From Elusimicrobiota bacterium (GTDB lineage Bacteria > Elusimicrobiota > Elusimicrobia > UBA1565), in the NCBI GenBank assembly GCA_043827405.1, contig JBDRPD010000083.1, positions 192,001 to 256,000 on the forward strand: a stretch of DNA of 64,000 nt. The letters are read 5' to 3'. The first letter of the stretch is position 1. Each line of letters begins with the position of its first letter. Positions 15,441 to 39,015 of the stretch are shown here, piece by piece. Made by a program: the position numbers and the translations under genes. The notes under the pieces were generated by a model. The model saw only the letters and a program-made list of their open reading frames with translations, searched no databases and was not told where the DNA came from.

Positions 15441-15992
15441 CTACTGTGTCGGGACCGCGAGCTTTTGCGCGGCGCCCCAGGCCCTTATGACCGGGAGCAT
15501 GGCCGCGTTGACGCGCTTGAACGTCGCGCTGCGCAGCAGTTTGGATTCGGGCGCGGACGATTGCGCGGATACCCCCAGGCGCTGCAGCATCGCATACTTG
15601 ACGCCGTCCGGGTACTCGGGGATAACGGAAGCGCCGGCGCCGGTTTGCCAATAGTGCTGGCTGCCGGCACCGGTGCCGGCTTGCCAATAGTATTGACTGC
15701 CGGGGCCGGTGCCGGTTTGCCAGTAATGCCGGCTGCCCGCGTCGGTGCCGGTCTGCCAATAATGCTGGCTGCCGGGGCCCGTGCCCGTTTGCCAATAGTG
15801 CTGGCTGCCGATGCCGGTGCCGGTTTGCCAATAATATTGACTGCCGGCATTCGTGCCCGTCTGCCAATAATGCCGGCTGCCCGTGCCGGAGCCCGTTTGC
15901 CAGTAGTGATTGCTGGCGGATGCGGCCGGCGCAAGCCCCGTCCATATAAGGGCGGCGGCCAGTAAGATAAGGGTGAAATTGAGTTTTCTCAT
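15441..15992 (-). CDS. Secreted protein with eight tandem 12-aa repeats S-x-[HY]-YWQ-[TA]-G-x-x-x-G
   Basis: Signal peptide ending ASA; 36-bp in-frame repeats at about 15627-15914. Confidence 0.85.
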   Translation of the reverse strand: MRKLNFTLILLAAALIWTGLAPAASASNHYWQTGSGTGSRHYWQTGTNAGSQYYWQTGTGIGSQHYWQTGTGPGSQHYWQTGTDAGSRHYWQTGTGPGSQYYWQAGTGAGSQHYWQTGAGASVIPEYPDGVKYAMLQRLGVSAQSSAPESKLLRSATFKRVNAAMLPVIRAWGAAQKLAVPTQ

Positions 15993-16100
15993 AGGCATGC
16001 CTCTATTATGCCTCATCGTCGCAAATCCGGCTTAGGACCATGGTCCCGTGCCGGGTCCGGTAAACGGCCCGAAGCGTAGAGACGCAAAGGCCCAGGCCTG

Positions 16101-17009: not shown

Positions 17010-17252
17010 CTGAGAGCCTCCCGGCCGGGTTATCCCGGCGCATCTCCGAAATCCATGATATGCCCGGACGGCCCAAACGAATAGCACCCATGGGGCCATG
17101 CCGGCCTGGGCCGAAGGTCCCATCTTGTTTCAGCCCTGATTCCTCGGCGACCATGCGAAAATGATATGTTCAGGCATGCAGTTCGCTCCATTGCAGTTTC
17201 CCCTCGTCCTCTCATATCTGCTGATGTCCTCCGTCGCGCTGGTTCCCAGGCC

Positions 17253-18500
17253 ATGAGAACGACCGGCAGGAGGAGGAAATTCGAAGCCGCGCTGGTGTTT
17301 CTGGCGATCATGACCATGCTTTTGGCCATGAATCGCCATGAAAACAGAATGCTGTTCGGGCTCAGCATCTACGGTGGGATAACCATCGGCTATCTGCTGC
17401 TCAAGCTGCTGCTCTCGTCATGGTACCGGCCGTACAGGGGCAGCGGCGGCGGGACGCGCACCTACTATGCGGTCGTCATCCCGTTTTACAACGAGGAGCC
17501 CCGGGTGCTCAAGCGCTGCCTGGAAAGCGTTCTCCGCCAGACTCTTCCGGCGCAGGAGATTTATATCATCGACGACGGCAGCGCTGATGATACCTGCTAC
17601 CGTTTAGCCAAGGACCTGCTGCGGGAAAAGGACAACGCGCAGGTCCTCCGCTGCGACGTGAATAGGAACAAGCGCAATGCGCAGTCCGCCGCCTTCCGGA
17701 GCATACAGGTCCCGATCACCATCACGCTCGACAGCGACACCGTGCTCGATGAGAATGCGATCGAAGAGGGCTTGCGGCCTTTCGCGGACCCCGCAGTGCA
17801 GGCCGTCAGCGGCAACGTGCGGGCGTTGAACGCCAAGACCAATCTGCTGACCCGCCTTATCGATATGCGCTACTGCAACGCTTTTCGCTACGAGCGGGCC
17901 GCCTACAGCACGCTCGATTCGGTGCTCTGCTCCTCCGGCGTATTCAGCTTGTGGCGGACCCGCCTGATCCAGAACAATCTGCAGGATTACCTTGATCAAA
18001 AATTCTTCAGCATGCCGGTCGTCGCCGGTGACGACCGGCGGCTGAGCTACTATGCGCTGCGGGAAGGCAAGAGCGTGTTCCAGGAGACCGCCGGCTGCGC
18101 GACTGTAGTGCCGGACACTTTGGGGAAGTTCTTCAAACAGCAGGTTCGCTGGAACAAGTCCTTCTTCCGCGAAACGATTAACCTGCTGGCGCGGTTCCCG
18201 CTCACCAAGCCCGCCTGGTGGCTCGCACTATCCGAGCTATGCCTGTGGCTGCTCTTCGGTATCCTGGTTCTTCTCGTTTTTGTCATTAAGCCCATTGTGG
18301 GCGGCAGGATCCTCGGCCTCTATTACTTCGGCTATATCGCACTTATGGCTTATGTGCGCAGCGTCCGCTACATGCAGGAGAGTTTTTTTGTCTACCTGCT
18401 GTCCCCGCTGTACGCTCTTATCCACATCTTTCTGCTGCTGCCGGTACGCATTTACAGCTTATGTACGATCATGGATGATTCGTGGGGAACACGAAGTTAG
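17253..18500 (+). CDS. Processive GT2, hyaluronan synthase/NodC-like
   Basis: DDGS, DSDT, GDDRRLS, QQVRWNKSFFRE, terminal WGTR; N- and C-terminal TMs; start uncertain. Confidence 0.85.
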   Translation: MRTTGRRRKFEAALVFLAIMTMLLAMNRHENRMLFGLSIYGGITIGYLLLKLLLSSWYRPYRGSGGGTRTYYAVVIPFYNEEPRVLKRCLESVLRQTLPAQEIYIIDDGSADDTCYRLAKDLLREKDNAQVLRCDVNRNKRNAQSAAFRSIQVPITITLDSDTVLDENAIEEGLRPFADPAVQAVSGNVRALNAKTNLLTRLIDMRYCNAFRYERAAYSTLDSVLCSSGVFSLWRTRLIQNNLQDYLDQKFFSMPVVAGDDRRLSYYALREGKSVFQETAGCATVVPDTLGKFFKQQVRWNKSFFRETINLLARFPLTKPAWWLALSELCLWLLFGILVLLVFVIKPIVGGRILGLYYFGYIALMAYVRSVRYMQESFFVYLLSPLYALIHIFLLLPVRIYSLCTIMDDSWGTRS

Positions 18501-20284
18501 CGCCGCGGCGCATTATCGAAGCCGGTCTTTGGCTCGTCGCCGTCGGCGTTCCTCTTGCCTGGAGCGATAAGTTCTATGCCGAGTACGTCCTGCCGAAACT
18601 TGTCGTTCTGACCGCGGGACTGCTCATCGCCGCAGGGGGCTGCGTTTTCGCGGTATTGCGCGGCGAACGGGTCATCCGCCGAACGGGGCTGGAATGGCCG
18701 ATCCTCGTTCTGGGCGGGGCGCTCGCCCTCTCCTGCGCCCGCTCGGTCGATCCGATCTCCAGCGCGCTTGGCCACTACAATGACTATACGCACGGTTTAT
18801 GGCCGCTGCTCCTGCTGGCGGCGCTGAGCTGGCTCGCCGCCTGGGGGGGCTCCGGCGGTATGCGGCGGCGGGTTTTGACGGTATCGGTCGCCACGGCCGT
18901 TCTGGTCGCCGCTTACGCCGTCCTCCAGGCGCTCGGTGTGGAGATCTTCGCGCGCGCCGGAGATATTATCGCCGGGCGCGCGGTTTCATTTATCGGGAAC
19001 GCGGTATTTCTCGGCGCGTATCTGGCGGTTGTTTTGCCTGTGGCGCTGCATTTTGCGGTCACGGCCGATGGCAAGGCCCGTGTTTGGGCCGTTTTCGGGT
19101 TTCTGGGGATCGGCGCGGGAATCGTCGCGACAACGTCAAGAGGCGCTCTCCTGGCGGCCGTCTGCGCCGGCGCCGCTTACCTGATAATGAGCCGCCGTCT
19201 GAAAATGCCGAAGCTCAGCCGTCCGCAGCTGCTCGCCGCCGCGGCGGCGGCCTTGGTCATATCGTCTATGGCAGGTGTCCGGTTTATGTCGCGCGATACC
19301 ACGCGGGCCAATCAGGCGCGGATCGCGCTGTGGGAGATCGGCTGGAAAGCTTTTCGGGAAAAACCGCTTCTCGGATCGGGCCCCGATACCTTCGAGTGGG
19401 GTTTTCGCCGGCATCGTACGGAATCCTATATTCGTGCCCGCCGGCCGAAAGAGTATATGACCCATGCGCATAATGACTTGCTGCAGGCGCTTTCGACTTT
19501 AGGCGTTCTCGGCTTTGCGGCCTATCTCTTCGCGGTCCTTTCGCTGGCGCTGTTCGGCTGGCGGCGCTTGCGGCGTGAGGGAGGCCGGGAGGGGGCGGAC
19601 CCCGCGCTTCTCGCGGCGCTCTTGGCGCTTTTTATCGTCATGAAGTTTAATCCGCCGTATATCGCGGCCCTAACGCTGGCCGCTCTCTATTTGGGGCTCC
19701 TATGCGCGGATGAGGATGGGGAGCGTCGTCCCATCGACGCCGGCGGTATGCGCTTCGCGATCGCCGGCGCCTTCCTGCTGTTTACGGCGGGGTCGGTTTG
19801 GCTTTCCTGCCGGCTGGCCGGCGCGGACTGGTATTTCAAGCGGGCTTTGGTCAATGAGGCGCTTGATCGACCCGACTATGCGCTGGCGCACTATCGAAAA
19901 GCCGCGCGGCTTAACCGGTGCGAGCTCAGATACCGCATGAAGATGGTCAATCATCTGCTCTCGCTCGCCTCCCGCTTGCCCGCGGGGAGCCGCCGTTCGG
20001 CGCTCATCGATGAGCTCGCCGCGAGCGCGCGGGAAGCGAAGGCCTGCCGCCCGCAGAGCATGCATGCCTATCATATCGACGGCATCGTCGAGCTCGCGCA
20101 GGTGCAGTCGGGACGCGCCGAGCGTCTGACGAACGCCCAGGCCGCGCTCGACCGGGGCTTGCAGCTGGATCCGCTCAACGCGGCGCTGCTGCGCGCGCGC
20201 GGGAAGGCGGCGTATTTCGGCGGAGATATGCAGGCCGCGCAGCTCTTCGCGCGGCGTGCGCAGCGCCTCGAGACCCTGCGCTAG
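18482..20284 (+). CDS. O-antigen ligase (Wzy_C) family membrane protein with C-terminal TPR
   Basis: SRGALL, RIALW...PLLGSGPDTF, HAHND; TPR-like tail. Confidence 0.85.
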   Translation: MGNTKLAPRRIIEAGLWLVAVGVPLAWSDKFYAEYVLPKLVVLTAGLLIAAGGCVFAVLRGERVIRRTGLEWPILVLGGALALSCARSVDPISSALGHYNDYTHGLWPLLLLAALSWLAAWGGSGGMRRRVLTVSVATAVLVAAYAVLQALGVEIFARAGDIIAGRAVSFIGNAVFLGAYLAVVLPVALHFAVTADGKARVWAVFGFLGIGAGIVATTSRGALLAAVCAGAAYLIMSRRLKMPKLSRPQLLAAAAAALVISSMAGVRFMSRDTTRANQARIALWEIGWKAFREKPLLGSGPDTFEWGFRRHRTESYIRARRPKEYMTHAHNDLLQALSTLGVLGFAAYLFAVLSLALFGWRRLRREGGREGADPALLAALLALFIVMKFNPPYIAALTLAALYLGLLCADEDGERRPIDAGGMRFAIAGAFLLFTAGSVWLSCRLAGADWYFKRALVNEALDRPDYALAHYRKAARLNRCELRYRMKMVNHLLSLASRLPAGSRRSALIDELAASAREAKACRPQSMHAYHIDGIVELAQVQSGRAERLTNAQAALDRGLQLDPLNAALLRARGKAAYFGGDMQAAQLFARRAQRLETLR

Positions 20285-20660: not shown

Positions 20661-20689
20661 TTGACAGGGGGCGCGGTATTCTGGATAAT
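20661..20689 (+). promoter_or_regulatory. Sigma70 promoter for the lipoprotein-caspase genes
   Basis: TTGACA-17 bp-GATAAT; AGGAG RBS before 20731. Confidence 0.65.
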
Positions 20690-20730: not shown

Positions 20731-21084
20731 ATGATCAAAAAGAAGTTCATGCCGTTCATCGGCCTGGTAGCCGTGGCCGCGTTCCTGGCGTCCTGCACCA
20801 CCATGCCCGTATCGCTGTCGCCGTCCTCGACCTATATCGCGCCCAACGATACGGTGACCGAGGTCGGACCGGTTTCCGGCTCCGCCTTTACCGTTTTCAT
20901 CTTCGGCCTGCCGATCGGCGAGCAGGAGCAGATCGCTCCCGCGTTGAAGAGGGCGCTGAAGAGCTCCGGCTCGGATGCGATCATCGAGGTGAAGACGGAG
21001 TTCAAGACCTACAACTTCATGCTTTTCCACGTGTTCCGCACCCGGGTCTACGGTACCGGCGTAAAGATTCAGAAAGGCGGCTGA
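20731..21084 (+). CDS. Small lipoprotein, TRL/Bor-like
   Basis: Lipobox LASC; GSAFTVFIFGLP...DAIIEV...TRVYGTGVK pattern. Confidence 0.7.
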   Translation: MIKKKFMPFIGLVAVAAFLASCTTMPVSLSPSSTYIAPNDTVTEVGPVSGSAFTVFIFGLPIGEQEQIAPALKRALKSSGSDAIIEVKTEFKTYNFMLFHVFRTRVYGTGVKIQKGG

Positions 21085-21169
21085 GGCCGGTCTGAGCCGT
21101 TTCGCCGCCGCGCCCGCACAACGCGTCAGCGTTGTGCGGGCCGGTGTCGTTTAAGTGGAGGGGGGAGCC

Positions 21170-22621
21170 ATGCGTACGCACCTGCGATATATCGCCGTTC
21201 TATCCGCCGTCATGGTTTCGGCCGGCTGTACCGCGGCCCTGCGGCCGCTGATGATCGCCGAGCCCCCCGCGTCGGTTAAGCGTGTGGAGCCGCTGGACGA
21301 GAAGATTCCCCTGCCGGTGGACGTCGTGATCAAGGCGCCGGAGAGCATGCCCATCGTGGGGGGCAAGTACACCTATTCCCTCAAGCATGTGCTGGAGAAA
21401 TCCTTCAAAAACGCGGCGGGGGCGATCTTCGATGGCGCCGGCGGCACCGGAGAGTACAGCTACCGGCTCGAGGTCACCGCGCGCTCGTCGCAGCTGCAGG
21501 CGCTCGGCCTGGCCAAGGATCAGGCCGAGTTCAGCGCCGTTATCGTCAGCAAGCTGATTAACCCCGACGATAAGGTGCTGGAGAACAAGACCTATTCCGG
21601 CAGGAAGCAAAGCTCCTTCGATAAGGCCAATACTCCGGACGCCGTATGGGAAGTCTGCTATACCGCCGCCGGCGAGCTCGCCGACAGCATTCGCCAGGCC
21701 CGGTGGCTGCGCAAGGCGCGGACCCAGGTTTACGGCGCGGCGCCGACCTCGGCGGCGCAGATGCAGGCCATGATCAACGCGGCCGCAAAAAGCGCGGCGG
21801 CCAACCAGCCGGCGGCGAAAAAGAAAGAGCGCGTCTACAAGTCCGACATCGACAACCCGACATACAAGAGCGCGGAGCGCCCGGACGACTTCGCGCTGGT
21901 CATCGGCATCACCCAGTACTCCTCTATTCCCGAGGCCTCATTCGCCGAGCGCGACGCCGAGGCGATGAAGAAGCACCTGATTGCGCAGGGCTTTCCGGAG
22001 CGCAATGTGGTGCATCTGGTCGGCAGCAAGGCCACCCGGACCGGCATCAAGAAGTACCTGGAAGAGTGGCTGCCGCGCAACGTCACGGATAAGAGCCGCG
22101 TCTTCTTCTACTTCTCCGGCCACGGGGCGCCGGATACCGACAGCAAGGAAGCCTTCATGGTGCCGTGGGACGGCGACCCGAACTTCCTCAAGAGCACCGC
22201 CTACTCGATGAACGACCTCTACGCCCGGCTCTCCGAGCTCAAGGCCAAGGAGGTCGTGGTGGCGCTCGACGCCTGCTTCTCCGGGTCGGGCGGCCGCTCG
22301 GTGCTGGCCAAAGGGGCGCGGCCGCTGGTGATGAATGTGGACACGGGCAAGATCCTCGACGACAAGCTCACGGTGTTCGCGGCGGCCGGGGACACGCAGA
22401 TCACCAGCGCCCTCGACGACCAGGGCCACGGCATCTTCTCCTACTACTTCATGAAGGGGCTGGCCGGGGACGCCAAGGACTCCTCGGGGAAGGTCACGGC
22501 GCAGGGGCTCTTCGACTACCTGCAGCCGAAGGTCGCCGACGCGGCGCGCCGGCAGAACCGCGAGCAGACGCCGGCGCTGCGGGGCGGCGATAAGGGCCGC
22601 GTGCTGGGCTCTTTTAAGTAG
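21170..22621 (+). CDS. Caspase-family (peptidase C14) lipoprotein, catalytic dyad intact
   Basis: Lipobox SAGC; FYFSGHG, LDACFSG, EQTP. Confidence 0.88.
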   Translation: MRTHLRYIAVLSAVMVSAGCTAALRPLMIAEPPASVKRVEPLDEKIPLPVDVVIKAPESMPIVGGKYTYSLKHVLEKSFKNAAGAIFDGAGGTGEYSYRLEVTARSSQLQALGLAKDQAEFSAVIVSKLINPDDKVLENKTYSGRKQSSFDKANTPDAVWEVCYTAAGELADSIRQARWLRKARTQVYGAAPTSAAQMQAMINAAAKSAAANQPAAKKKERVYKSDIDNPTYKSAERPDDFALVIGITQYSSIPEASFAERDAEAMKKHLIAQGFPERNVVHLVGSKATRTGIKKYLEEWLPRNVTDKSRVFFYFSGHGAPDTDSKEAFMVPWDGDPNFLKSTAYSMNDLYARLSELKAKEVVVALDACFSGSGGRSVLAKGARPLVMNVDTGKILDDKLTVFAAAGDTQITSALDDQGHGIFSYYFMKGLAGDAKDSSGKVTAQGLFDYLQPKVADAARRQNREQTPALRGGDKGRVLGSFK

Positions 22622-23354
22622 CCGCCGGATTTTTCGTCAGGTGGGCGGCGAACAGGCGCCGCAGCTGCTTGAGCTCCCTCGACTTAAGCGCCAGCGAGGT
22701 GATGCCGGCGAAGCAGTCGAGCAGCACCATGGCGTTGAGCACCGCGTCTTTTTTGCAGACCCGCTGCAGCCGGCCGACGAAGTGCTGGTTGACGTCCCGG
22801 ATGTTCTCCATTAGGGCGGCCAGTCCGTGCATCTCCCAGTCGGGCGTCTCGCCGTCGCGCAGATGAAAATACTGCGCCAGCATATACATCGACAGCACCC
22901 GGTACATGGTCTCCTCGTGCGTGGCGAAAGGCAGGTGGGTGCGCGCCATGGGGCGCAGCTTATCGAGCACGGGGCAGCCGCTCGATACCATGTAGAGGCC
23001 GAGCAGCGCGCTGATGCCGTCGGAGACCGGCGCCCGCTTGGCGAACTTGCGGGTCGCCGTCGAGATGTTGATCTGGGCGAGAGCGGTGGACGGCACCTCC
23101 TTGAAGTAGTCGACGATGTCGACGATGCTTTCCGCTACCGGGCAGCGCGGGCGCTGGGTTTTGGTCAAGGCGCAGCTGGGGCACTGGCTGTTGTCGAGTA
23201 AAGTCCACTCGGGGTATTTTCCGCGCGGTTCGCGCAGCAGCTCCAGAGAATGCTCGTCGAGGCGGATGACGAAGTCTTTCTTTTTTCCGCCCGCGAACTT
23301 GAAGCTGTAGCGGAATTCCAGCTCGTCGATGTCCGAGATGTCGTGTTTGGGCAT
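22614..23354 (-). CDS. Conserved Cys-containing hypothetical protein (DUF6901-like)
   Basis: WT.L...QCPSC...CP, SSGCP...RPMARTHLPFA. Confidence 0.7.
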   Translation of the reverse strand: MPKHDISDIDELEFRYSFKFAGGKKKDFVIRLDEHSLELLREPRGKYPEWTLLDNSQCPSCALTKTQRPRCPVAESIVDIVDYFKEVPSTALAQINISTATRKFAKRAPVSDGISALLGLYMVSSGCPVLDKLRPMARTHLPFATHEETMYRVLSMYMLAQYFHLRDGETPDWEMHGLAALMENIRDVNQHFVGRLQRVCKKDAVLNAMVLLDCFAGITSLALKSRELKQLRRLFAAHLTKNPAAT

Positions 23355-23397
23355 GGCCCATTGTAGCTGGCAGGGGAGGGGGCTGGCAAGCGCCCCG

Positions 23398-24054
23398 TTA
23401 ACGAGCGATCGCGTCCCAGATCGGTTTGCCGAGGAACGAGGCGAGCGTTTGCGCGTCCTCGCGCAGACGCTCGCGATCACCGTGGTCGGCGACGTTGACG
23501 CGGCTCGCGTCGTCGAGAATGAGGTTCAGTTCGTAGCTGTAGTAGGAGGAATTTTTTCCGGTGCAGCGTTCGGAGATCAGCTGCAGGGCGTGGATGCGGC
23601 TCAGCTCGATATAGTCCTTCGGCGGCGCCGCGCCCGCGGCTCCGCGATAGAACAGCGAGCGCGTGCGGTCGAAGACGAGCGGTTTCGCGTTCGCATGGAG
23701 CATGCCGCCTCCGACCGCGGCAAAGACCGCGCCTACCAGGACGGGGATGAGCGCGCCCCAATCGTGGCCGGGAGCCTCCACGAAGAAGAAGAGGTTGATG
23801 CCCAGAGTGACGGCGCCCAGGCCCATGAGCAGAAAGACCATGGCGAACAGCTTCATCCCGATCGTCGGCCGGAATTCGAACCGGCCGGGCCCGGCTTCGT
23901 GCAGCTTGCTGGTGCAGAAATTGGCGCCGCCGCCCTTGGCGGGAGTCCATTGGGTCCGCTCGGCGAGCGGGTCGTTGAAGCTTTTGGGATCTACCGGCGT
24001 CGGTGTGCGGACGAGCTTTTGCAGCTGCGCCATCAGTGCTTTGAGCATATCCAC
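23398..24054 (-). CDS. Hypothetical 2-TM membrane protein
   Basis: WTPAKGGGANF, two TMs, YSYELNL...FLGKPIWD. Confidence 0.75.
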   Translation of the reverse strand: MDMLKALMAQLQKLVRTPTPVDPKSFNDPLAERTQWTPAKGGGANFCTSKLHEAGPGRFEFRPTIGMKLFAMVFLLMGLGAVTLGINLFFFVEAPGHDWGALIPVLVGAVFAAVGGGMLHANAKPLVFDRTRSLFYRGAAGAAPPKDYIELSRIHALQLISERCTGKNSSYYSYELNLILDDASRVNVADHGDRERLREDAQTLASFLGKPIWDAIAR

Positions 24055-24199
24055 AGGATGGAAGAACGGCGGTGATCCGTCAAGGGAGGGTAACTTGTCG
24101 GCAATTACAGAATTTCGATATAACCGCTGGATGCCATGTGTCGCCGCCGGATTATTGCCTTCCTAATCCGGTTAAGCGGATATTTTGCAATAATGGCTG

Positions 24200-25627
24200 A
24201 TGAAAAAGAGTCTTTCACTGCTGATCTCCGTCGTTCTCCTGCTCCCCGGCTGTGCCTCCACCCCGCTGCCGGTGGATCCTTTCGGCGGACTGGTTCCCGA
24301 TTCTCCTTACAAGGACATGACCCTCGCCCTCATGATCTCCGAGAACACCAAGCAGGCCATCGAGTACGGCCGCATGGGCCGCAAGTGGGCCCGCAGGCTG
24401 GGCGGCTTTGATTTCGATCCGGAGGGACTCGCCGAAGACATCACCGGCATGCTCCAGCGAGACTTCAAGAAGGTCATCCGGGCCGAGCAGCTGGCGGATG
24501 CTGCTCCCGCGGGAGCCGACCTGGTCGCCGTCCTCGACATCAGGGCGCCGAAGTTCAAGGCCGACCTTCGCTACGCTTGGTGGCTCGCCTTTTTTCCCGC
24601 CTTCTGCCTCATCCTCGCGATCGGTCAACCCACGAAGATAACCGTGGACAACGGGGCCGTCTTCCTCACCCCTGACGGTCGGCAGGTGGAGTCCATCCGG
24701 GTCGTTCATCTTTATCGGCGGCTCGGCAAGATGGATGTTAAGATTCATAACGCCTACCTCCAGGCGCGCTACAACCTCGAGCGTGATATGCTGGCCTCCG
24801 AGACCCTGCGGAACTACGCTAAGTCGGTCCGCGCGCAGGGAGCGGCCGCCGCGGCCGCCGGGCTATCCGCAATCCACTCCGACGTGGACCGTCCCGCCTA
24901 CCTGCACCCGGTGGACGAGAATCTCTTCGCCGTCGTTATCGGCGTGGACGCCTATGACCATGCGCCGCGGGCTGAATACGGCGAGCGCGACGCGCAAGCG
25001 GTGCGCGACCACCTTCTCGCTCTGGGTTACCCGCAGCGCAATATCGCCTTTGCCACCGGAACGCGTGCGGGTCGGGCGGCCATCGAGAAATACGTCGAGT
25101 CGTGGCTGCCCGAGCGTGCGGGAGCCGGCGCCAAGGTGCTGTTCTACTTCGCCGGCCATGGCGCCCCGGACGTCTCGACCGGGGAGGCTTACCTCCTGCC
25201 GCATGACGGCGATCCCAAATTCCTGGGAAATACCGGCTATCCGGTGAAGCGGTTGTATGAAAAGCTCTCGGCGCTGAAAGCCGGGCAGGTCGTCGTGGCC
25301 ATGGACGCGGGCTTCTCGGGAACCGGGGGGCGCTCGGTGCTCCCCCAAGGCGCTCGTCCTCTTATCACCGAAGTGCGGGACCCCGTGCCCCAGAAGCTCG
25401 CAGTGCTTGAGGCCGCGTCTTCGTCGGAGATCGCCGGAGTCGCGCAGACGCAGGGTCACGGGCTGTGGACTTATCACTTTCTCAAGGCGCTGCAGGAGAC
25501 CAAGGGGAAAGCAGGACTCGGCGACCTGCATGAGCGGGCCGCCAAGGGAATAGCCGACGCGGCCCGGCGCGAAGGCCGCGATCAGACGCCGCGCCTGCTG
25601 CGGGGCCGCGGGGCAAGGTTGAGGTGA
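24200..25627 (+). CDS. Caspase-family lipoprotein with catalytic Cys replaced by Gly
   Basis: Lipobox LPGC; FYFAGHG but MDAGFSG; DQTP. Confidence 0.85.
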   Translation: MKKSLSLLISVVLLLPGCASTPLPVDPFGGLVPDSPYKDMTLALMISENTKQAIEYGRMGRKWARRLGGFDFDPEGLAEDITGMLQRDFKKVIRAEQLADAAPAGADLVAVLDIRAPKFKADLRYAWWLAFFPAFCLILAIGQPTKITVDNGAVFLTPDGRQVESIRVVHLYRRLGKMDVKIHNAYLQARYNLERDMLASETLRNYAKSVRAQGAAAAAAGLSAIHSDVDRPAYLHPVDENLFAVVIGVDAYDHAPRAEYGERDAQAVRDHLLALGYPQRNIAFATGTRAGRAAIEKYVESWLPERAGAGAKVLFYFAGHGAPDVSTGEAYLLPHDGDPKFLGNTGYPVKRLYEKLSALKAGQVVVAMDAGFSGTGGRSVLPQGARPLITEVRDPVPQKLAVLEAASSSEIAGVAQTQGHGLWTYHFLKALQETKGKAGLGDLHERAAKGIADAARREGRDQTPRLLRGRGARLR

Positions 25628-25631
25628 GTCG

Positions 25632-26519
25632 ATGAAATACTGGATTATTCTGGCTGCCGCGGCCCTAAGCGCCTGCTTCCCGCCGCCGGCCACTCGCGAC
25701 CCGTTCGCCGGACTGGAGCTCGCCCCCGCCGCTCCCGGCGCCGCCGCTCCCAGGCGCAGCTACAGTTCGGATGCGGACGAGCCGAGCTACAAGCTTAAGG
25801 AGCAAGAGGACCGCTACGCCGTGGTAGTGGGGATCGAGGACTATGAGGGTCTGCCGAGCGCCGACTTTGCGGAGCGTGACGCGCGCTCGGTGAGGGCGCA
25901 TCTCCTCGCTCTTGGCTACCCCGAGAGGAACGTCGTCCTCCTCACCGGGCGTGCGGCCGGCCGGGCGGCGATCGAAAAATACGTGGAGTCATGGCTCCCC
26001 GACCGGGTGAATGATCGCTCGAGAGTCCTGTTCTACTTTTCGGGCCACGGCGCTCCGGACATCAAGTCGGGCTCCTCTTATCTTCTGCCCTGGGACGGCG
26101 ACCCGAAGTATCTCGGCAATACCGCCTATCCGCTCCGGCGCCTCTACAAGCAACTCGACTCCCTCCAGGCCCGGCAGGTGGTGGTGGCTCTCGACGCCTG
26201 CTTTTCGGGCGCCGGAGGCCGATCGGTCCTGCCGAAGGGAGCGCGGCCGCTGGTCATGAAAGTGGACGACGGATCGAAGGGTACCGGGCGGCTTGTCGTT
26301 CTGGCGGCTTCCCGCGGGGATGAAATCACCGGGAGCGACGAGAAGCAGGGCCACGGCCTGTTCACCTACTATCTTCTTAGCGGGCTGAACAATCGCCGGA
26401 CTTCGGTGCAGGCCCTGTACGAGTATCTGACGCCCCTCGTTCGCGACGCCGCGCGCGCCGACAACCGTGATCAGACCCCGCAGCTTCTCGGCCCGGCGCA
26501 AGGCGTCGACCTCCGGTAG
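25632..26519 (+). CDS. Caspase-family lipoprotein, minimal form, dyad intact
   Basis: Lipobox LSAC; FYFSGHG, LDACFSG, DQTP. Confidence 0.88.
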   Translation: MKYWIILAAAALSACFPPPATRDPFAGLELAPAAPGAAAPRRSYSSDADEPSYKLKEQEDRYAVVVGIEDYEGLPSADFAERDARSVRAHLLALGYPERNVVLLTGRAAGRAAIEKYVESWLPDRVNDRSRVLFYFSGHGAPDIKSGSSYLLPWDGDPKYLGNTAYPLRRLYKQLDSLQARQVVVALDACFSGAGGRSVLPKGARPLVMKVDDGSKGTGRLVVLAASRGDEITGSDEKQGHGLFTYYLLSGLNNRRTSVQALYEYLTPLVRDAARADNRDQTPQLLGPAQGVDLR

Positions 26520-27285: not shown

Positions 27286-27900
27286 ATGGCCAAAGACCTG
27301 ACCGGACGCCAGCGCAGCATTCTCGACTTCATCGCCAAAAGCGTGCGCGAGGCCGGCGTGACGCCGACCTTGCGTGAGATCGCCCGGCATTTTTCGGTGA
27401 CGGCCGGCGGGGTGCAGAAACAAATCCGGGCGTTGGAGGCCAAGGGGGTCCTGCGGCGGACGCCGGGCGCGGCGCGAGGGCTGCGGGTCGCCGCGCGGCG
27501 GGAGACGGATATGCCGCCGCGCCTGCCGGTCCTCGGCTTCGTCCCGGCCGGCGTTCCGGCCGAAGCGATCGAGAACGTGGAAGGGTATCTGAGCCTCGAC
27601 TCCGCGGTGGCCAAAAACGCCGACTATCTGCTGCGCATCAAGGGCGACAGCATGGCCGACGAGTTCCTGCCCGGCGATCTGGTCTTCGTGCGCCAGACCG
27701 CGACCGCGGACAACGGCGACGCGGTCATCGCCCGCGTCGAGGGCGACGAGGCCACGGTCAAGCGCTTGCGCCGGAGCGGCCGGGAGAGTTGGCTTGAGCC
27801 GGCCAATCCCCGCTATCCGCCGCTGCGGGACAAGCCGTTTGCGATCATCGGCAAGGTCGTGGGACTGGTGCGGAGCTATGGGCGTCGAAAAGGTCGATGA
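27286..27900 (+). CDS. lexA: LexA repressor
   Basis: LTGRQ..IL..I, PTLREIA wHTH; AG cleavage site (VPAG); GDSM Ser and TVKR Lys dyad. Confidence 0.92.
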   Translation: MAKDLTGRQRSILDFIAKSVREAGVTPTLREIARHFSVTAGGVQKQIRALEAKGVLRRTPGAARGLRVAARRETDMPPRLPVLGFVPAGVPAEAIENVEGYLSLDSAVAKNADYLLRIKGDSMADEFLPGDLVFVRQTATADNGDAVIARVEGDEATVKRLRRSGRESWLEPANPRYPPLRDKPFAIIGKVVGLVRSYGRRKGR

Positions 27901-28126
27901 GCCGGTAAAGGTCGGCGCCGTCTTCAGCGGCAGCAGCATCCTGCCGAAGTGGTTCGTCTGGTCCCGCCGCAAGTACACGGTCGAGTCCGTGGATATGATG
28001 TGGAAAGGCCTGCTCGGTGATGTCCCGGTTCGCTATTTTTCCGTTTCGGACGGCGCCAATACCTATCAGCTGCGGCTCAACCAGAAGACGCTCGAATGGC
28101 GTCTCGAGCGGGTCCACTCCCGTTAG
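27878..28126 (+). CDS. Small beta-rich protein, DUF6504/ImuB-C-like
   Basis: GGAG RBS; P.WF.W..RKY.V..V...W...YF.V......YQL.......WRLER pattern. Confidence 0.7.
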   Translation: MGVEKVDEPVKVGAVFSGSSILPKWFVWSRRKYTVESVDMMWKGLLGDVPVRYFSVSDGANTYQLRLNQKTLEWRLERVHSR

Positions 28127-28137
28127 GCGGCGGATCG

Positions 28138-29355
28138 ATGCGGCCGCGCGTGATCCTGCATGCCGACATGAACGCCTACTTCGCCTCGGTGGAGCAGAAG
28201 GCGAACCCCCGGCTGCGCGGCCGGCCGATCGTCATTGTCGGCGACCTCCGGCGCCGCAGCGTGGTGCTCACCTCGAGCTATGAGGCCCGCGCCTATGGGG
28301 TGAAGACCGGGATGCTGTTCTGGGAGGCCAAGCGGCTCTGCCCGCAAGTGATCCCCGTCGTCGGCGATCCGGGCAAGTACCGCGCGCAGACCCGGGAGAT
28401 CATCGCCCTTCTCGAGCGCTACACCGACCGGCTTGAAGTGGCCTCGATCGACGAAGGCTACCTGGACGTGACGGGAAGCCTGCGGCTGTTTAAGACCGAC
28501 GGCCGGGGAATAGCGCAGCTGATTCAAACGGAGATCCGGGATAAGCTGGAGCTGCCCTGCTCGATCGGCGTGGCGCCCAACAAGCTGCTGGCGAAGCTGG
28601 GCTCGAATATGAAAAAGCCCATGGGCATCGCGGTCATCCGGGCCGAGGATGTGGCGGGCCTGATGGAGAACCTTCCGGTCGAGGAGCTGTGCGGGATCGG
28701 CCCGCGGTTTAAAGAGCGCCTAAACCGGATCGGCATCCGGACCTGCGGGCAGCTCGGCGCGGCTGCACGCTCTCTCCTGGAAGGCGAGTTCGGCTTCTGG
28801 GGCTACTGGATGGGGCGCTGGGGCCGGGGCGAAGACGACCGCCCGGTGGTGCGGGCCGACGAGGATGAAGCGGTCAAGAGCGTGGGGCACAGCACCACCC
28901 TGCCGCGCGATACCGTCGACCCCAAGATCATATACGCTTTTCTGCTGCTGCTGGCGGAGAAGGTCGGGGTTCGCCTGCGCCGCGCCGGGCTTAAGGGACG
29001 GACGGTGACGCTCACCATCCGTGACGCTGATTTCCATACCCGCTCGATGAGCCGCACGGTCGGCGAGCATCTGGCGGACGGGCCGGCGATCGCGCAGACG
29101 GCGCGCCGGACCCTGCGCGATCTTTGGGCCGGGGAGCCGCTGCGCCTGCTGGGAATCGGCGTCTCGAAGCTCATCGCCCATGCGGATCAGGCCTACCTCC
29201 TGGGGGGGCTGGAGAAAGAGCGGCGTCTGGTGCGCGCTATGGACGCGATCAACGAGAAGTACGGGCGCCGGACTTTGCGCCGCGCCGCCGTACTGGATGC
29301 CGAAGACTTCGGCGTGCTCGAGCCTCCCATCCCGCCGCAGATGCGGGCCAGTTAA
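28138..29355 (+). CDS. dinB: Y-family DNA polymerase (Pol IV/DinB-like)
   Basis: HADMNAYFASVE, SYEAR, SIDEGY, KLLAK...KP; clamp-like QAYLL; MDAINEKYG tail. Confidence 0.9.
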   Translation: MRPRVILHADMNAYFASVEQKANPRLRGRPIVIVGDLRRRSVVLTSSYEARAYGVKTGMLFWEAKRLCPQVIPVVGDPGKYRAQTREIIALLERYTDRLEVASIDEGYLDVTGSLRLFKTDGRGIAQLIQTEIRDKLELPCSIGVAPNKLLAKLGSNMKKPMGIAVIRAEDVAGLMENLPVEELCGIGPRFKERLNRIGIRTCGQLGAAARSLLEGEFGFWGYWMGRWGRGEDDRPVVRADEDEAVKSVGHSTTLPRDTVDPKIIYAFLLLLAEKVGVRLRRAGLKGRTVTLTIRDADFHTRSMSRTVGEHLADGPAIAQTARRTLRDLWAGEPLRLLGIGVSKLIAHADQAYLLGGLEKERRLVRAMDAINEKYGRRTLRRAAVLDAEDFGVLEPPIPPQMRAS

Positions 29356-29406: not shown

Positions 29407-30639
29407 ATGGCTGGTTATCTCGCGTTTATTTCGCGCCACAGCGGCGCCATCCTCGCGGCATTGGGAGGGCTGGCGGTTCTGGGCGGCATATTGTTTTTTT
29501 ACGGCCGCCGCCGGTGGGCCCGCTACGTGGAAGAGCGGGAGACGCTCTATCAGCCTTTGCTGCTGATGGCGATCGCCAACGAAGAGGGGGGCAAGCTCGG
29601 TCCGCCTTTCGACGATGCGCGCCGGCTCGGCGACTGGACGATCGTGGAGAATGCGCTGTTCAATTGGTCGGAGAGTTTGACCGGCTTCTCGCATAAGGGC
29701 TTTCGCCGCATCTTCGATCTCAACGGCTTCGGCGAATACGAACGGGGACGTCTGGAGAGCCTGTTTCCCTCCGTTCGCGCCCAGGCCGCCCATCGGCTCG
29801 GCAAGATGATCTACTTCAAGGCCATCCCGGACCTGCTGCCCATGCTGCGCGACCGCTCGGCGGAGGTGCGGCGCCGGGTTTCCTGGTCCCTGGCCAAGAT
29901 GGGCCAGTCGGACGCGACCGGGCTGTTCGTAACCTCGTCGCGGCCCGATATCGTTGTTGAGGATGCGGGCAAGTCCACCGGCGCCATCACCGGGCGCTTT
30001 TTGTGGGAGGACGGGGAGCCGATCGTTATCGGCAATAAAGAAGAGACGGACTACCTCATCCACCGCGAGGGCGGGATGCACGGCGACGTGCGGAACATGC
30101 CGATTACGGGCTATGGGGGACGGGAGCTCAAGGGCGGCGCCTGGCAGACGTACACGAAGGAGTACCGGCTGCAGAATATCCCGCCGACCCGGCCCGCCGT
30201 CGTGAAGTCCGTCCTCAAGCAGGGGGTCGGCAAGTACTACGTCGTGCTGCACCGGCAGCGCGAGAGCATCACGGTCCGGGCGGGCAGCCTGACCCAGAAC
30301 GTCGACTTCGTCTTCCCCCGCATCAAGGACCCGGACGACCGGGCTTCGGTCGTTGGTAAGCTTATTTATTCCGGAGTGCTCAAGCCCGGCTACAGCGACG
30401 GTTCTACCGGCGGCCGGGTGAAGGCCGTGGTCTACCTGCGCGGAGAGCGCTCGGGGTTCTACTCCGGCTACCTTTCTTTCTGGGAGCTGGACAGCTATCG
30501 CCTGCACGAGGTCCCGGGAGGGCGCTACCACATAAAAGCGACCGTCGCCGCCTACGAATACACCGGGATCGTAGTCATCCCCGACGCCCAGCCGCATACG
30601 CTGGATCTGACGCTCACTCTTGCTGCACGCCCTGGATAG
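29407..30639 (+). CDS. Membrane-anchored HEAT-repeat protein
   Basis: N-terminal TM; VRAQAAHRLG and EVRRRVSWSLA repeats; beta-rich C-terminus. Confidence 0.7.
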   Translation: MAGYLAFISRHSGAILAALGGLAVLGGILFFYGRRRWARYVEERETLYQPLLLMAIANEEGGKLGPPFDDARRLGDWTIVENALFNWSESLTGFSHKGFRRIFDLNGFGEYERGRLESLFPSVRAQAAHRLGKMIYFKAIPDLLPMLRDRSAEVRRRVSWSLAKMGQSDATGLFVTSSRPDIVVEDAGKSTGAITGRFLWEDGEPIVIGNKEETDYLIHREGGMHGDVRNMPITGYGGRELKGGAWQTYTKEYRLQNIPPTRPAVVKSVLKQGVGKYYVVLHRQRESITVRAGSLTQNVDFVFPRIKDPDDRASVVGKLIYSGVLKPGYSDGSTGGRVKAVVYLRGERSGFYSGYLSFWELDSYRLHEVPGGRYHIKATVAAYEYTGIVVIPDAQPHTLDLTLTLAARPG

Positions 30640-32245
30640 CTTCCAGGTCCCGGCGGATCTCCGGATTCCTCCGGTCGAGGAGGGCGGCGTTGCGCAGGGC
30701 GTGCAGCGTTTCCCGCTTGCCCTGCATCCGGAGATACTTGCTGAGCTCCCACCACAGGACGCCGTTGAGCCGGTCGAGTTGGATCGCGGCTTCCTGGTGC
30801 TCGACCGCCTGGTCGAGCCGCCACGTGTCCCCGGCGGCCTCGAAACGCGCGTAGAGAACACGCGCTTGACCGCGCCGCGCTTCAGCCGACAGGGAATCAA
30901 TCCCCGCCGCGCCGGCATAGGCGCTTAGCGCGGCGTCCAGGTCGCCGGCGCGCAGCCTTTCTCCGGCATAGACGCAGTTGCGGCTGGCGAAGAACGGCGA
31001 CGCGATATAGGGGACGGCGCAGACCGCCGCCAAGACCGCGGCGATGATGATTGTGCGGCGCGGCTTGAAGAGCGCGGAGGCCGCGGGCGCCGCCGCCGCC
31101 GCCAGGAAGACCCAAAACGCCGCCAGGTTGACCCAATACTCGACGCTCAGGCTGATAAGGCCGAAGAGCGCGAACAGCGCCAGCCCCGTTAGGTAGGGAA
31201 GGCGCTGCTCGAGAACCTCTCGGCAGCGGATGCGGCGCAGCCATAAGAGCAGAAACGCCGACAGCCCAAGCACCCCGGCCAGCCCGCTTTCGGCGAGCAG
31301 CGTCAGCGGGAAGCTGTGGGCGAACAAGGTATGCTGGCCGCCGGCCTGGTAGGCGAGATAGGCGCTGGGAAAGTTGCCGAGCCCCACGCCCAGCCATGGA
31401 TGGTCGAAAAACATCCGCATTCCGCTCCACCACCAGCCGAGACGGCGCAGATTTTCTCCCGGCTCGAGCGGGTAGCCGCCGAGATTCAGCGTGCCGAGAA
31501 ACTTATAGCCGACGGCGGCGGCCAAGAGCAGCGGAATCGTCAGCAGGAGCGCGGTATGCCGTTTATTGCGGCGGTCGCGATAGCGGACCGCGGCGGCGGC
31601 GGCGGCGATGCCGACGCATACCAGCGCCCAGGTGCTGTAGACGAAGATCAGCGCGATCCCGGCCGCGGCGAGGCCGAGCCGCCAGACGTAGCGCAGCGGC
31701 TGCGCGCTGTTCCAGGTCGCATGCACGCGTGCGGCCAGCGGGGGGAGCCAGAGGATGAGAAAAGCCGCCGCGATATTGGAGTTTACCAAGGTCCCCGCCG
31801 GCTGCTCGCGAAAAAACGAGCCGACGCACTGCTGATACAGGATCATGGCCGCCTGCACGCACAATACGGGGACCATGCCGGCGAGAAAGATCTCCAGCGC
31901 GCGTCGGGTCCGCAGGACGTGCAGGGAAATCCAAAATAGCGCCATACAGGAAAGCCAGTCCAGCCAGCGCAGATAGGCTTCGCCCGGCCGCACCGCGTGC
32001 AGGAACGTCAGGGTCCATATGAGGGCCAGCACTCCCAGGTGGGGCGCGAAGTCGACGCGCAGGCCGCGTGAACGGGACGACCACGCGGAAACGAGCAGGA
32101 GGCCCGCCGCGAGGGCCAGCACGGCGATATAAACGATGGTCGCCGCCCATACATCATGCGCGCCGCGCGCCAGCGCGGCGCAGCTTAGCAGGAGCGCCAG
32201 CAGCAGCGCGAACATCTCATCGGCGGAGGTCTTTTCGCGGGGCAT
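30614..32245 (-). CDS. O-antigen ligase family membrane protein with TPR
   Basis: R...W...HPWLGVGLGNF, FAHS, ESGLAG; TPR tail. Confidence 0.85.
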   Translation of the reverse strand: MPREKTSADEMFALLLALLLSCAALARGAHDVWAATIVYIAVLALAAGLLLVSAWSSRSRGLRVDFAPHLGVLALIWTLTFLHAVRPGEAYLRWLDWLSCMALFWISLHVLRTRRALEIFLAGMVPVLCVQAAMILYQQCVGSFFREQPAGTLVNSNIAAAFLILWLPPLAARVHATWNSAQPLRYVWRLGLAAAGIALIFVYSTWALVCVGIAAAAAAVRYRDRRNKRHTALLLTIPLLLAAAVGYKFLGTLNLGGYPLEPGENLRRLGWWWSGMRMFFDHPWLGVGLGNFPSAYLAYQAGGQHTLFAHSFPLTLLAESGLAGVLGLSAFLLLWLRRIRCREVLEQRLPYLTGLALFALFGLISLSVEYWVNLAAFWVFLAAAAAPAASALFKPRRTIIIAAVLAAVCAVPYIASPFFASRNCVYAGERLRAGDLDAALSAYAGAAGIDSLSAEARRGQARVLYARFEAAGDTWRLDQAVEHQEAAIQLDRLNGVLWWELSKYLRMQGKRETLHALRNAALLDRRNPEIRRDLEAIQGVQQE

Positions 32246-34402: not shown

Positions 34403-37400
34403 ATGAAATCACGACTGGTTGATGCATTCTTGGGGCTGATCCTGACTTTGGCCGTGGCGGCGTCCTATGTGACCCTGCGCGGCATCGAGAGTCTGGAGCT
34501 CAAGGTCTACGACCTGCGTGCCCAGATGAACGGCGATGTCGCGGTTCCGGATGACATCGTCATCATTGAGATCGACAATGATTCCATCGAGCGTCTCGGC
34601 CGCTGGCCGTGGCCGCGGACCCTTATCGCCCGGATGCTGGAGAAGCTCGACAAGGCGGGTCCCCGGGTTATCGGCCTCGATGTTCTATTCACCGAGCCGG
34701 CCAAGAACCCGGCGTTCAAGGAGCTCGACGACCTCGAGAAAAAATATACCGATTTGGTCGCCGCGCGCCGCATTATTCAGCGGGGCGTGCAATTCGAGAC
34801 GGAGTTCTCCTCGGCGGCCCATCGCCTCGACACCGACGCCCACCTGCTGGCCGCGCTGACTACGACGTATAATGTCGTGCTGCCGATGATGTTCAAGACC
34901 GCGGGCGCGACCGGCGGCCGGCCGGCCCCGGTGCCGGAAACGATGGCCAAGTCGGCGCTGTCGGTGCGGATAAAAAGCCTGCCGGAGGGGACGGTACCCC
35001 CGCTGGAGGCTTCCGGCGTCCTGTATCCCCTGGAGCCCTTCATGCGGGCCAGTACGGGCACCGGGCATATCAGCATTATCCCGGACCCGGACGGGATTGT
35101 GCGGCGCGAGATGCCGGTTATTAAATACGGTACGGACTACTACCCGTCCTTTTCGCTGCAGCTGGTCGCCAAATCGATGCGGCTGGCATCTGATGAGATC
35201 GAGGTGACGCCTGGCGAGTCCATTACCGTGGGCAATATGCAAATCCCGCTGGATGAGACGCAGTCGATGCTCATTACCTACAACGGCGATGTGCGGACTT
35301 TCCGCTACTTCAAGTTCTACGAAGTCATGAAAGACGACTTCTCCATGGAGGTGTTCAAGGACAAGATCGTCATTATTGGGCCTTCCGCCTCCGGCATCGC
35401 GACGCTGTCGGTCACGCCGCTCTCGCGCGGGCTGCCTCCGGTCGAATATATCGCCAACGTCACCGAAAACTTTATCAACAGCAAGTACGTCAACCGTCCC
35501 GATTGGGCGCTGCAGGCGGAGCTCGGCGCGATCGCCTTCATCGGCCTCTTCGTCATGATCGTCCTGCCGCGGCTGGGCGTCGTCAGCGGGCTGTTTTTGA
35601 CCTTGCTGTTTATGTCCGGTATTCTGGGCTCGGGCTTCTACCTGTTCAAGAAGGACGCGATATGGCTGAAGGTCACCTACCCCGCCTTCCTGCTGGCCGT
35701 GGGCTACGTCGTCATCATGGTGAAGAATTTCTTCACCACCGAACAGGATAAGGAGCGCGTCGAGGGCACTCAGGCCGACACCAACAAGCAGCTGGGCCTC
35801 CAATTCCAGAGCCAGGGCATGCTCGACATGGCCTTCGAGAAGCTGCGCACCTGTCCGGTCGACGATAACATGAAGGAGACCCTTTACGGCCTCGCTCTTG
35901 ATTTCGAGCGCAAGCGCCAGTACTCCAAGGCCGTCTCGGTTTACCAGTACATCGAGAAGGAACAGGGGGATTACAAGGATATTCAGACGAAGATGAAGGC
36001 GCTGCAGGCCGCCGCCGAGGGCGCGGTGTTCGGCGGTATCGGCGGCGGACCATCCAAGGAAGGGACGATCTTCGCCGGCGGCGGGGCATCCAAGCCGACG
36101 CTGGGCCGTTACGAGATCGAGAAAGAGCTCGGCCGCGGCGCCATGGGCATCGTCTATCTCGGCAAGGACCCCAAGATCAACCGCATGGTGGCCATCAAGA
36201 CCTTGATGATGGAGGGGGAGGACGATCCCAAGGAGACCAAGGAGGTCAAGGAGCGCTTCTTCCGCGAGGCCGAGTCGGCCGGGACCCTCAACCATCCCAA
36301 TATCGTTCGCATTTTCGATGCCGGCGAGGACAATGATCTGTGCTGGATCGCGATGGAGCTTCTGGACGGCCACGATTTCGTCGGCTACACCAAAAAGGAC
36401 AAGCTGCTGCCGCCGGAGAAGGCCATGGCGTACGTGGCCAATGTGGCCGAAGCGCTCGACTATGCCCATTCCCAGGGCATCGTCCACCGCGATATCAAGC
36501 CGGCCAATATCATGCTGCTCAAAGACGGCAGCGCGCGCGTTACGGATTTCGGCATCGCCCGCATTACCGCGTCCTCGAAGACGGCGACCGGAACCGTTAT
36601 GGGGACGCCGTCTTACATGAGCCCGGATCAGGTCGCCGGCAAGAAGGTCGACGGCCGCTCCGATCTGTTCAGCCTGGGCGTCACGCTCTATGAGCTGCTG
36701 TGCGGCGAGAAGCCGTTTAAGGGCGGCGAGGGCATCGGCACCTTGCTGTTCCAGATCGCCAACGATCCCGAGCCGGACATCCTGACGATTAATCCCAATT
36801 TGCCGTCCGCCGTTAAGTCCGTTATCACCCGCGCGCTGATGAAGAACGCGGACGAGCGGTATCAGAACGGCGCGCAGATGGCCAAGGATATCAAGGCCTG
36901 CATCGAGGAAATAAAGGGCGGCGCCAAGGCGGAGGTGACGGGCGCTTCCGAGGCCGCGATCGCCGCGGGGCTGACTATTGAGGCGGCGGCGGCCCCCGCG
37001 GAAGAGGAGAAGGCCCCGCCCGTCGAAGGCGGGGCGGATCTGGCCGTCGATTTCGCGTCCGGGATGCCGCCGGTAGCGACGGGCGGAGCCGAAAGCGAAA
37101 CGTCGCCCCCGAGCGAGGCTGAGCCGGCGGAAGAAGTCATCGTCGAAGCGGCAGCGCCCGCCAGCATCGATCTCTCTATCGATTTTGCGTCCGGCCCGCC
37201 GCCGGCCGCTGAACCAGCGCTCGAGCCTGCGCCCGAGCCGACGCCGGAGCCCGTGCTCGAGCCTGCGCCCGAGCCGCAGGACGACTTGCGTGCGCAGATG
37301 GAAGCGACGCTTGGCGCGCCGGCGGTTGAGCCGGAGCCCGCGCCGGCCGAGGAAAAGCCCGTCGAGATCGATCTCGAAAGCACGGGAAGCTTCTCGAAAG

Positions 37401-39012: not shown

Positions 39013-39015
39013 ATT

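Follow-up and report, generated by a model that had tools for sequence, protein, structure and literature searches.

A pseudo-caspase and a headless caspase encoded back to back in an Elusimicrobiota genome, a candidate envelope-anchored pair

The window analysed here is a stretch of 64,000 nucleotides (nt) from the genome of an Elusimicrobiota bacterium (contig JBDRPD010000083.1), and all coordinates are those of the whole window. It carries three genes for caspase homologs, paralogs A, B and C in 5′ to 3′ order. B has lost its catalytic cysteine, and the gene for C, an intact but headless paralog, starts 4 bp past the B stop codon. Judged from sequence comparison, such pairing of dead (Cys-less) and live paralogs has evolved repeatedly and convergently within the order. 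The explanation that is favoured here, tentatively, is that B, which bears a head but cannot cut, is the subunit that directs or activates C in a heterodimer anchored in the cell envelope.

The B-C gene pair and its locus

The features of the locus are as follows.

20661..20689, + strand: promoter-like site, sigma-70-like TTGACA-17-GATAAT (11/12 consensus matches; consensus only), 5′ of the unit of small lipoprotein and A
20731..21084, + strand: small lipoprotein gene, 117 amino acids (aa); the product has a hydrophobic stretch and a K-G-G tail at its C-terminus; conserved partner directly upstream of A
21170..22621, + strand: paralog A, 483 aa, predicted lipoprotein (Cys20), TolB_N/ABC-aux-like head, intact C14 domain
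22121 (His318) and 22274 (Cys369), + strand: active-site residues of A; S1 Asp262/Asp367
22614..23354, − strand: DUF6901 gene between A and B (E 4e-77), outside both modules
23398..24054, − strand: second intervening gene, with a hydrophobic segment and no confident family, outside both modules
24200..25627, + strand: paralog B, 475 aa, pseudo-caspase, predicted lipoprotein (Cys18), B-type head, dead C14 domain
24563..24622, + strand: hydrophobic helical hairpin in the B head (helices at mature 105-124 in the model)
25310..25312, + strand: GGC (Gly) codon replacing the catalytic Cys codon of B, from the alignment to A and C
25632..26519, + strand: paralog C, 295 aa, headless, predicted lipoprotein (Cys15), intact C14 domain, starting 4 bp past the B stop
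25695..25724, + strand: N-terminal arm of C (R-D-P-F-A-G-L-E-L-A), predicted to dock on the B head
26046 (His139) and 26199 (Cys190), + strand: active-site residues of C, from the alignment

The His-Cys dyad is H318/C369 in A and H139/C190 in C. B has Gly371 in place of the Cys (DAGFSG against DACFSG in A and C) and a second change, Ser318 to Ala (FAGHG against their FSGHG), and it keeps His320 and the S1 Asp. Locus L021 in another Elusimicrobiota genome holds a 71%-identical B ortholog that carries both substitutions (Gly and Ala) and is again followed by C after a 4-bp gap, and the Gly codon of B also stands unchanged in a contig from a separate study; these two occurrences of the Gly rule out an assembly error. 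Between the two genomes, which are separated at the B-C genes by a synonymous divergence (dS) of 1.3–1.4, the ratio of non-synonymous to synonymous change (dN/dS) is 0.16 for the dead domain of B, 0.33 for its head and 0.11 for C. The open frame and the ratio of 0.16 also dispose of B as a pseudogene. With a catalytic residue lost, the modelled fold intact and purifying selection evident, B can be classed as a pseudo-caspase.

The original prediction for this region had placed three paralogous open reading frames (ORFs) with C14 domains here, and all three match Peptidase_C14 above the cut-off. The domain start that it gave, SD[IVA]D.P, is present in each (SDIDNP, SDVDRP and SDADEP in A, B and C, whose C14 domains are 46–55% mutually identical), as is the loop that it wrote as GGRSVL..GARP (GGRSVL..GARPL in all three). 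Its placing of the loop after the catalytic position is right for A and C and wrong for B, which has no catalytic Cys, and a reading of all three as proteases is not supported. Nor do they make up one self-contained cluster, since A is cut off from B-C by two genes on the opposite strand; these minus-strand genes and the separate promoter-like site rule out a three-gene operon.

When mature B and mature C were modelled together, as the original prediction had proposed for pairs of these proteins, the complex scored 0.62 (runs 0.59, 0.67 and 0.62) and the best of three controls 0.00. The mark that it passed is reached by 116/157 solved and 2/215 mismatched pairs, rates that are only rough with self-made alignments. 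The runs share at least 47% of their contacts, and the partners have a predicted local distance difference test (pLDDT) score of at least 79. The modelled interface is symmetric and is made by helix alpha2 (GRAAIEKYVESW) and the PWDGDP segment, with confident contacts at C residues 93-107 and 139-150 and none on strand 270-272; residues not named here are uncertain. Caspase dimers pair through the last strand, as set out in the portion of PMC5756287 consulted, and the B-C model does not show this canonical strand-to-strand arrangement. In the model the C arm (Pro10-Ala17) lies on the B head. The D-P-[FL] of this arm is found in 11/13 short proteins (the two without it also lack an N-terminal signal) versus 8 of the 111 long ones from the search with A.

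Dead and live paralogs across the order

A DNA motif of the family, which misses its divergent copies, occurs 529 times in the order, or 528 after removal of one chance match in unrelated sequence (G278). It is present in 84 of 101 genomes, with 0 to 29 copies per genome. The catalytic Cys is missing from 12 of the 528, replaced in every case by Gly (10) or Ser (2). Ten of these 12 copies lie beside a live paralog on the same strand and contig, an eleventh appears from the contig ends to do so across a contig break, and one is alone; the baseline, from the 21 of the 84 genomes that were fully listed, is 19 of 146 live copies adjoining a live paralog. Related dead copies are not independent, so pairing was also counted by kin groups, giving 4/5 (p about 0.001). 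Stop and start codons overlap by 4 nt in six dead-live pairs and are separated by 4 bp in two, and live-live tandems are sometimes equally tightly spaced. A pattern scan of metagenomes added three dead copies at contig edges, which are uninformative on pairing. At one pair, L041, two small proteins are encoded directly 3′ (5726-6483), one of them weakly Lsa14-like (E 1.9e-6, sub-cut-off).

The second substitution of B recurs as well: Ser to Ala was found in 16/17 dead and 7/270 live domains of a 287-domain set whose manner of collection enriched it for dead copies. A single-clade origin of the dead copies is rejected by the approximately unbiased test (p-AU 1.26e-5), and a common origin of them all was dropped on this result; the tree has seven changes, at least five of them forced. 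It was built from 53 of the 287 domains (16 dead copies and chosen neighbours) with three trait columns masked and one very divergent dead copy omitted. Three starred groups of the tree join dead copies with their own neighbours, and the B group is not among them. A strong hydrophobic segment is present in the head of 7/12 scorable dead versus 3/180 live copies, four of the seven being one clade; B itself was skipped in this count by the lipobox filter, and B orthologs and further dead copies have the hydrophobic hairpin too.

At L040 (G264:C6, 2118-5209) a second, divergent pair lies beside a live-dead pair. One of its members keeps the Cys and has the Ser to Ala change, while the next has lost both His and Cys, and the two possibly show stages of the transition from live to dead.

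A profile of the three C14 domains detects 18 ORFs in this genome, 16 close paralogs and two distant ones, so that the paralog count proposed earlier for genome and phylum gives 16 close copies here alongside the 528 motifs in the order. In a sample of the phylum, matches at E 1e-20 occur in 38 of 301 Elusimicrobiota genomes; one family of the same order accounts for 26/27 of its genomes, and two large other families have none (0/88 and 0/89). Most of the named homologs are 'caspase family' or ankyrin proteins of Elusimicrobiota. Matches on viral (3 loci) and plasmid (4) sequences are only 24–32% identical, which speaks against a phage or plasmid origin. A bare three-gene cluster is ordinary for this order.

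The N-terminal domains had been described as swappable, and the wider set bears this out. Head types among the paralogs of the genome include ankyrin repeats (3) and WD40/CARDB (1), and heads of at least 100 aa fall into 33 sequence clusters. Ankyrin and B-type heads require 13 changes on the catalytic-domain tree, at least six of them forced, so heads have been swapped. The N-terminal regions of A, B and C were said to differ; the heads of A and B do differ in sequence and C is headless, but both heads are modelled as the same TolB_N/ABC-aux/Lipoprotein_16-like fold. A structure search with the B model listed caspase-fold matches only, and none for the B head alone. The 16 paralogs together likely represent a repertoire of head-targeted envelope proteases. 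Four live paralogs with differing N-terminal regions lie in tandem at L068 (G310:C107, 3402-8849).

Export signals, fold and active site

Signal peptides and lipoboxes were judged by sequence pattern. Canonical lipoboxes are present in A (VSAG-C20) and C (LSA-C15). That of B (L-P-G-C18) counts as atypical at −2 by the lipobox consensus, and its three closest orthologs have canonical LSGC, VTGC and LSGC. By eye, all 15 complete close paralogs of the genome have an N-terminal signal, lipobox-type in 11, and among 120 homologs 74 have a strict lipobox pattern and 99 a hydrophobic N-terminus. Lgt, LspA and LolA are encoded in the same genome. The export signals proposed for these caspases are therefore present as patterns, the B lipobox being the atypical one, and A, B and C are predicted to sit outside the cytoplasm on lipid anchors. 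Three matches to Lgt lie above the cut-off in this one genome (G000:C62, C56 and C52), perhaps in connection with a heavy lipoprotein load.

The model of C has a pLDDT of 88.8, and matches metacaspase 4 (Z 22.8, root-mean-square deviation 2.4 over 213 residues), MALT1 (22.1) and GSU0716 (21.7) among solved structures. AtMC4, AtMC9 and GSU0716 lie at Z 21.7–22.8, legumain and PIG-K at 17.9–20.1 and c-FLIPL at 16.7, and the identity of C to any listed structure is below 21%. A single-sequence search of solved structures gave no match, and a profile search gave weak metacaspase matches. The Pfam and structure matches both assign the caspase-hemoglobinase fold of Peptidase C14 (clan CD). The model contains a p10-like part (strands 207-211 and 270-272, helices 229-262) and aligns with metacaspases to residue 281, so C does not fit the definition of orthocaspases as lacking that part.

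The Asp of the ERD motif falls opposite the N-D Asp of TbMCA2 (S1) in the alignment, and each S1 Asp is retained in 286/287 non-redundant domains. By the rule given in the portions of PMC5756287 and PMC6426788 available to us, two such residues predict cleavage after Arg or Lys, and the Arg-type specificity suggested earlier is consistent with this acidic pocket. The GGRSV..GARP loop after the Cys is nearly invariant in the family and has a pLDDT below 50 in the C model. Its first Arg (Cys+7) is kept in 278/287 domains, including 16/17 dead copies, and is His in eight; the second directly precedes an invariant Pro. Self-cleavage at this loop, which the original prediction had raised, is no more than possible on this sequence evidence: the loop is nearly invariant, but its first Arg is His in eight domains and is kept in dead copies. 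The live partners in one dead-live clade (L040, L041, L047, L048 and L012) have GGHS for GGRS, and their dead neighbours keep the Arg.

Paralog A has a conserved neighbour of its own. Three close orthologs of the small lipoprotein (48–60% identity) each lie directly upstream of an A ortholog, 4/4 with this genome, and a K-G-G tail terminates all four A-linked copies. Seven of nine distant matches were inspected and none is upstream of an A ortholog; four of them are called genes without a K-G-G tail. From these sequences A and the small lipoprotein form a module separate from B-C, with the small protein likely a cofactor or substrate of A. The earlier description of this gene as TRL-like found no backing in family models, with no TRL match at E 0.1 and the best matches, DUF6567 (E 0.027) and LIC20211 (E 0.021), below cut-off.

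Possible roles of B and relation to known systems

In the favoured reading, B and C would form an envelope-anchored heterodimer from back-to-back genes, through contacts that the model places at helix alpha2 and the PWDGDP helix, with the DPFAGL arm of C docked on the B head. B would lend headless C a recognition head, and would switch on or aim the predicted Arg/Lys-directed protease site of C. Dimerisation may order the GGRSV..GARP loop beside the catalytic Cys, so that B would act on C, by analogy, as cFLIP-L does on caspase-8. A would perform the same chemistry in its own module with the small lipoprotein. Several points weigh against this reading. Tandem duplication alone puts a dead copy beside a live one, so adjacency is no proof of partnership, and the baseline for pairing draws on a minority of the motif-bearing genomes. 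One dead copy (G263:C27) stands alone, and dead copies are confined to 9 of the 84 genomes with the motif, so that most live members act without one. The B and C domains in the B clade are not grouped with support on the tree, and gene conversion could make a dead copy group with its neighbour. The interface uses family-wide residues (W107, P139, D141 and T150) and its conservation does not exceed the domain average (0.66 vs 0.69), for which reason the B-C model may show only that the family dimerises. Finally, sequence does not separate activation from inhibition.

On the last point, B might bind C as a brake, as a dominant-negative decoy or self-immunity factor in the envelope of the producer, perhaps trapping the C Arg loop in its own S1 pocket. 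The dead copies retain both S1 Asp and the entire loop, the tight stop/start coupling suggests matched amounts of B and C, the complex model fits equally well, and inhibition of caspase-8 by CFLAR heterodimers is described in the consulted part of PMC11994107. A brake is nonetheless unlikely, since most live paralogs have no dead neighbour, the loop and active site lie outside the modelled interface, and a headless C whose arm docks on the B head fits complementation better than blocking. It is harder still to credit that B is a tandem duplicate turned into an independent binding or scaffold lipoprotein, with its place beside C a by-product of its birth in a family that merely homodimerises. 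Live-live tandems do exist (the 19/146 above, and the four in series in L068), dead copies group with their neighbours on the tree, and the modelled interface is family-generic; set against this are the B-C order and 4-bp gap kept between genomes at such synonymous divergence, the same two substitutions recurring in separate groups, and the touch of the C arm on the B head in the model.

Two further explanations concern the family as a whole. Its members could be housekeeping maturation enzymes or transpeptidases (legumain/PIG-K-like) acting on the cell's own exported proteins, the head picking the client and the small lipoprotein being that of A. Weak Peptidase_C13 matches, the legumain and PIG-K structures among the matches, the 4/4 link of the small lipoprotein to A with a K-G-G tail absent from the unlinked homologs seen, and the absence of close relatives on viral contigs or plasmids all agree with this. 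It is improbable, as the C13 matches are sub-cut-off, C14 structures rank higher and a spread of 0 to 29 copies among genomes of a single order does not resemble housekeeping genes. The least credence is given to an offensive role, in which the proteins would act as effectors on the surface or on vesicles, their ankyrin, WD40 or Sel1 heads choosing targets among prey, competitors or eukaryotic grazers. A C-terminal protease behind a variable N-terminus, with ankyrin and WD40 heads, and a large lineage-specific expansion are what such a role might produce, and Sec-exported C-terminal caspase toxin domains appear in the part of PMC3482391 consulted. Yet polymorphic toxins vary at the C-terminal toxin, whereas in this family it is the head that varies and the catalytic end that stays constant, and a lipid anchor would tether the enzyme to its producer. 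Beside 13 other paralogs, inspected by eye on our own gene calls without a Pfam scan, no recurring immunity-like, substrate or partner gene was seen. The attack role that the original prediction had allowed for thus finds nothing beyond the repeat-domain heads.

Beyond the favoured reading of B and C lies a broader and doubtful one, in which the order runs a combinatorial envelope caspase network of up to some 29 lipid-anchored paralogs with swapped heads, sharing a non-canonical dimer interface and using convergent, cFLIP-like dead receptors for headless live subunits. The dead subunits of this proposed network have Cys to Gly/Ser plus Ser to Ala, often with a membrane hairpin.

cFLIP-L activates caspase-8, and the likeness to B-C lies in neighbouring paralogs, one without the catalytic Cys, in a predicted heterodimer and in the match of c-FLIPL to the C model. 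B-C differ in being bacterial, predicted exported lipoproteins with an acidic S1 pocket, a predicted helical interface and a repeated origin. Bacterial pseudo-orthocaspases, in the sections of PMC6426788 available, likewise have a dead C14 domain that retains the acidic S1 Asp. They mostly replace both dyad residues (YS, YA, FS, YN) and carry extra domains at the C-terminus, and in the Synechococcus/Synechocystis set of that source the pseudo-orthocaspase is the only copy. Here, by contrast with what is described there, the His is usually kept, the Cys becomes Gly or Ser, any extra domain lies at the N-terminus and a live partner is encoded alongside. Metacaspases and the orthocaspase MaOC1 (MEROPS C14B) share the His-Cys dyad, the S1 Asp pair and, at Z 21.7–22.8, the fold; the signal peptide or lipobox, the p10-like part and identities below 21% to the listed structures set the present family apart.

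Likely signal peptides were reported for 46 single-domain prokaryotic metacaspases, proposed to be extracellular, in the portion of PMC3501461 at hand; its survey gives none with a signal peptide in the Elusimicrobia then sequenced. These share with the present family an N-terminal hydrophobic segment ahead of the C14 domain, and that portion mentions neither dead-live pairs nor the present expansion. Exported caspases as a class are therefore not undescribed, as had been supposed. Defence caspases (PCaspase/SAVED-CHAT, EACC1-associated and those of PADLOC) have C14 similarity to it (NF047832 53–78 bits; PDLC02987 E 1e-16 to 1e-21), but the NF047832 scores fall short of the cut-off of 140 for EACC1-associated caspases, the present proteins have export signals, and no CRISPR, EACC1 or other defence partner was recognised near the window caspase genes. 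Polymorphic toxins differ in that here the C-terminal domain is constant, the head is variable and no neighbour recurs by eye.

Caspase homologs that bacteria export have been published before, as have bacterial pseudo-orthocaspases. The open-access literature, supplements aside, yielded neither a paper about this family nor one about dead-live caspase pairs in bacteria, and the part worth testing is the convergent dead-live pairing with its predicted non-canonical dimer. In animals, the pairing of a dead with a live caspase is a hallmark of death signalling. A small pair from bacteria, evolved on several occasions through identical substitutions, would offer a simple model of how pseudo-proteases arise and regulate their partners, as well as of another way to dimerise the caspase fold. 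Studied bacterial caspases are mostly cytoplasmic defence enzymes, and the present finding points to an uncharacterised exported branch. B and C are directly testable as two recombinant proteins.

Several other genes of the window are of note. Downstream of the caspase genes, LexA, an 82-aa ORF and a DinB/UmuC-family polymerase lie in series as an SOS mutagenesis-type cassette (27286-29355). A predicted secreted protein at 15441-16016 (− strand) has about eight tandem 12-residue repeats (..HYWQTGTG..) and no Pfam match. A family 2 glycosyltransferase adjoins an O-antigen-ligase (Wzy_C) protein at 17166-20284, a second Wzy_C protein is encoded at 30614-32245, and an operon at 34430-39735 encodes a CHASE2 Ser/Thr kinase, a PP2C phosphatase and an FHA protein.

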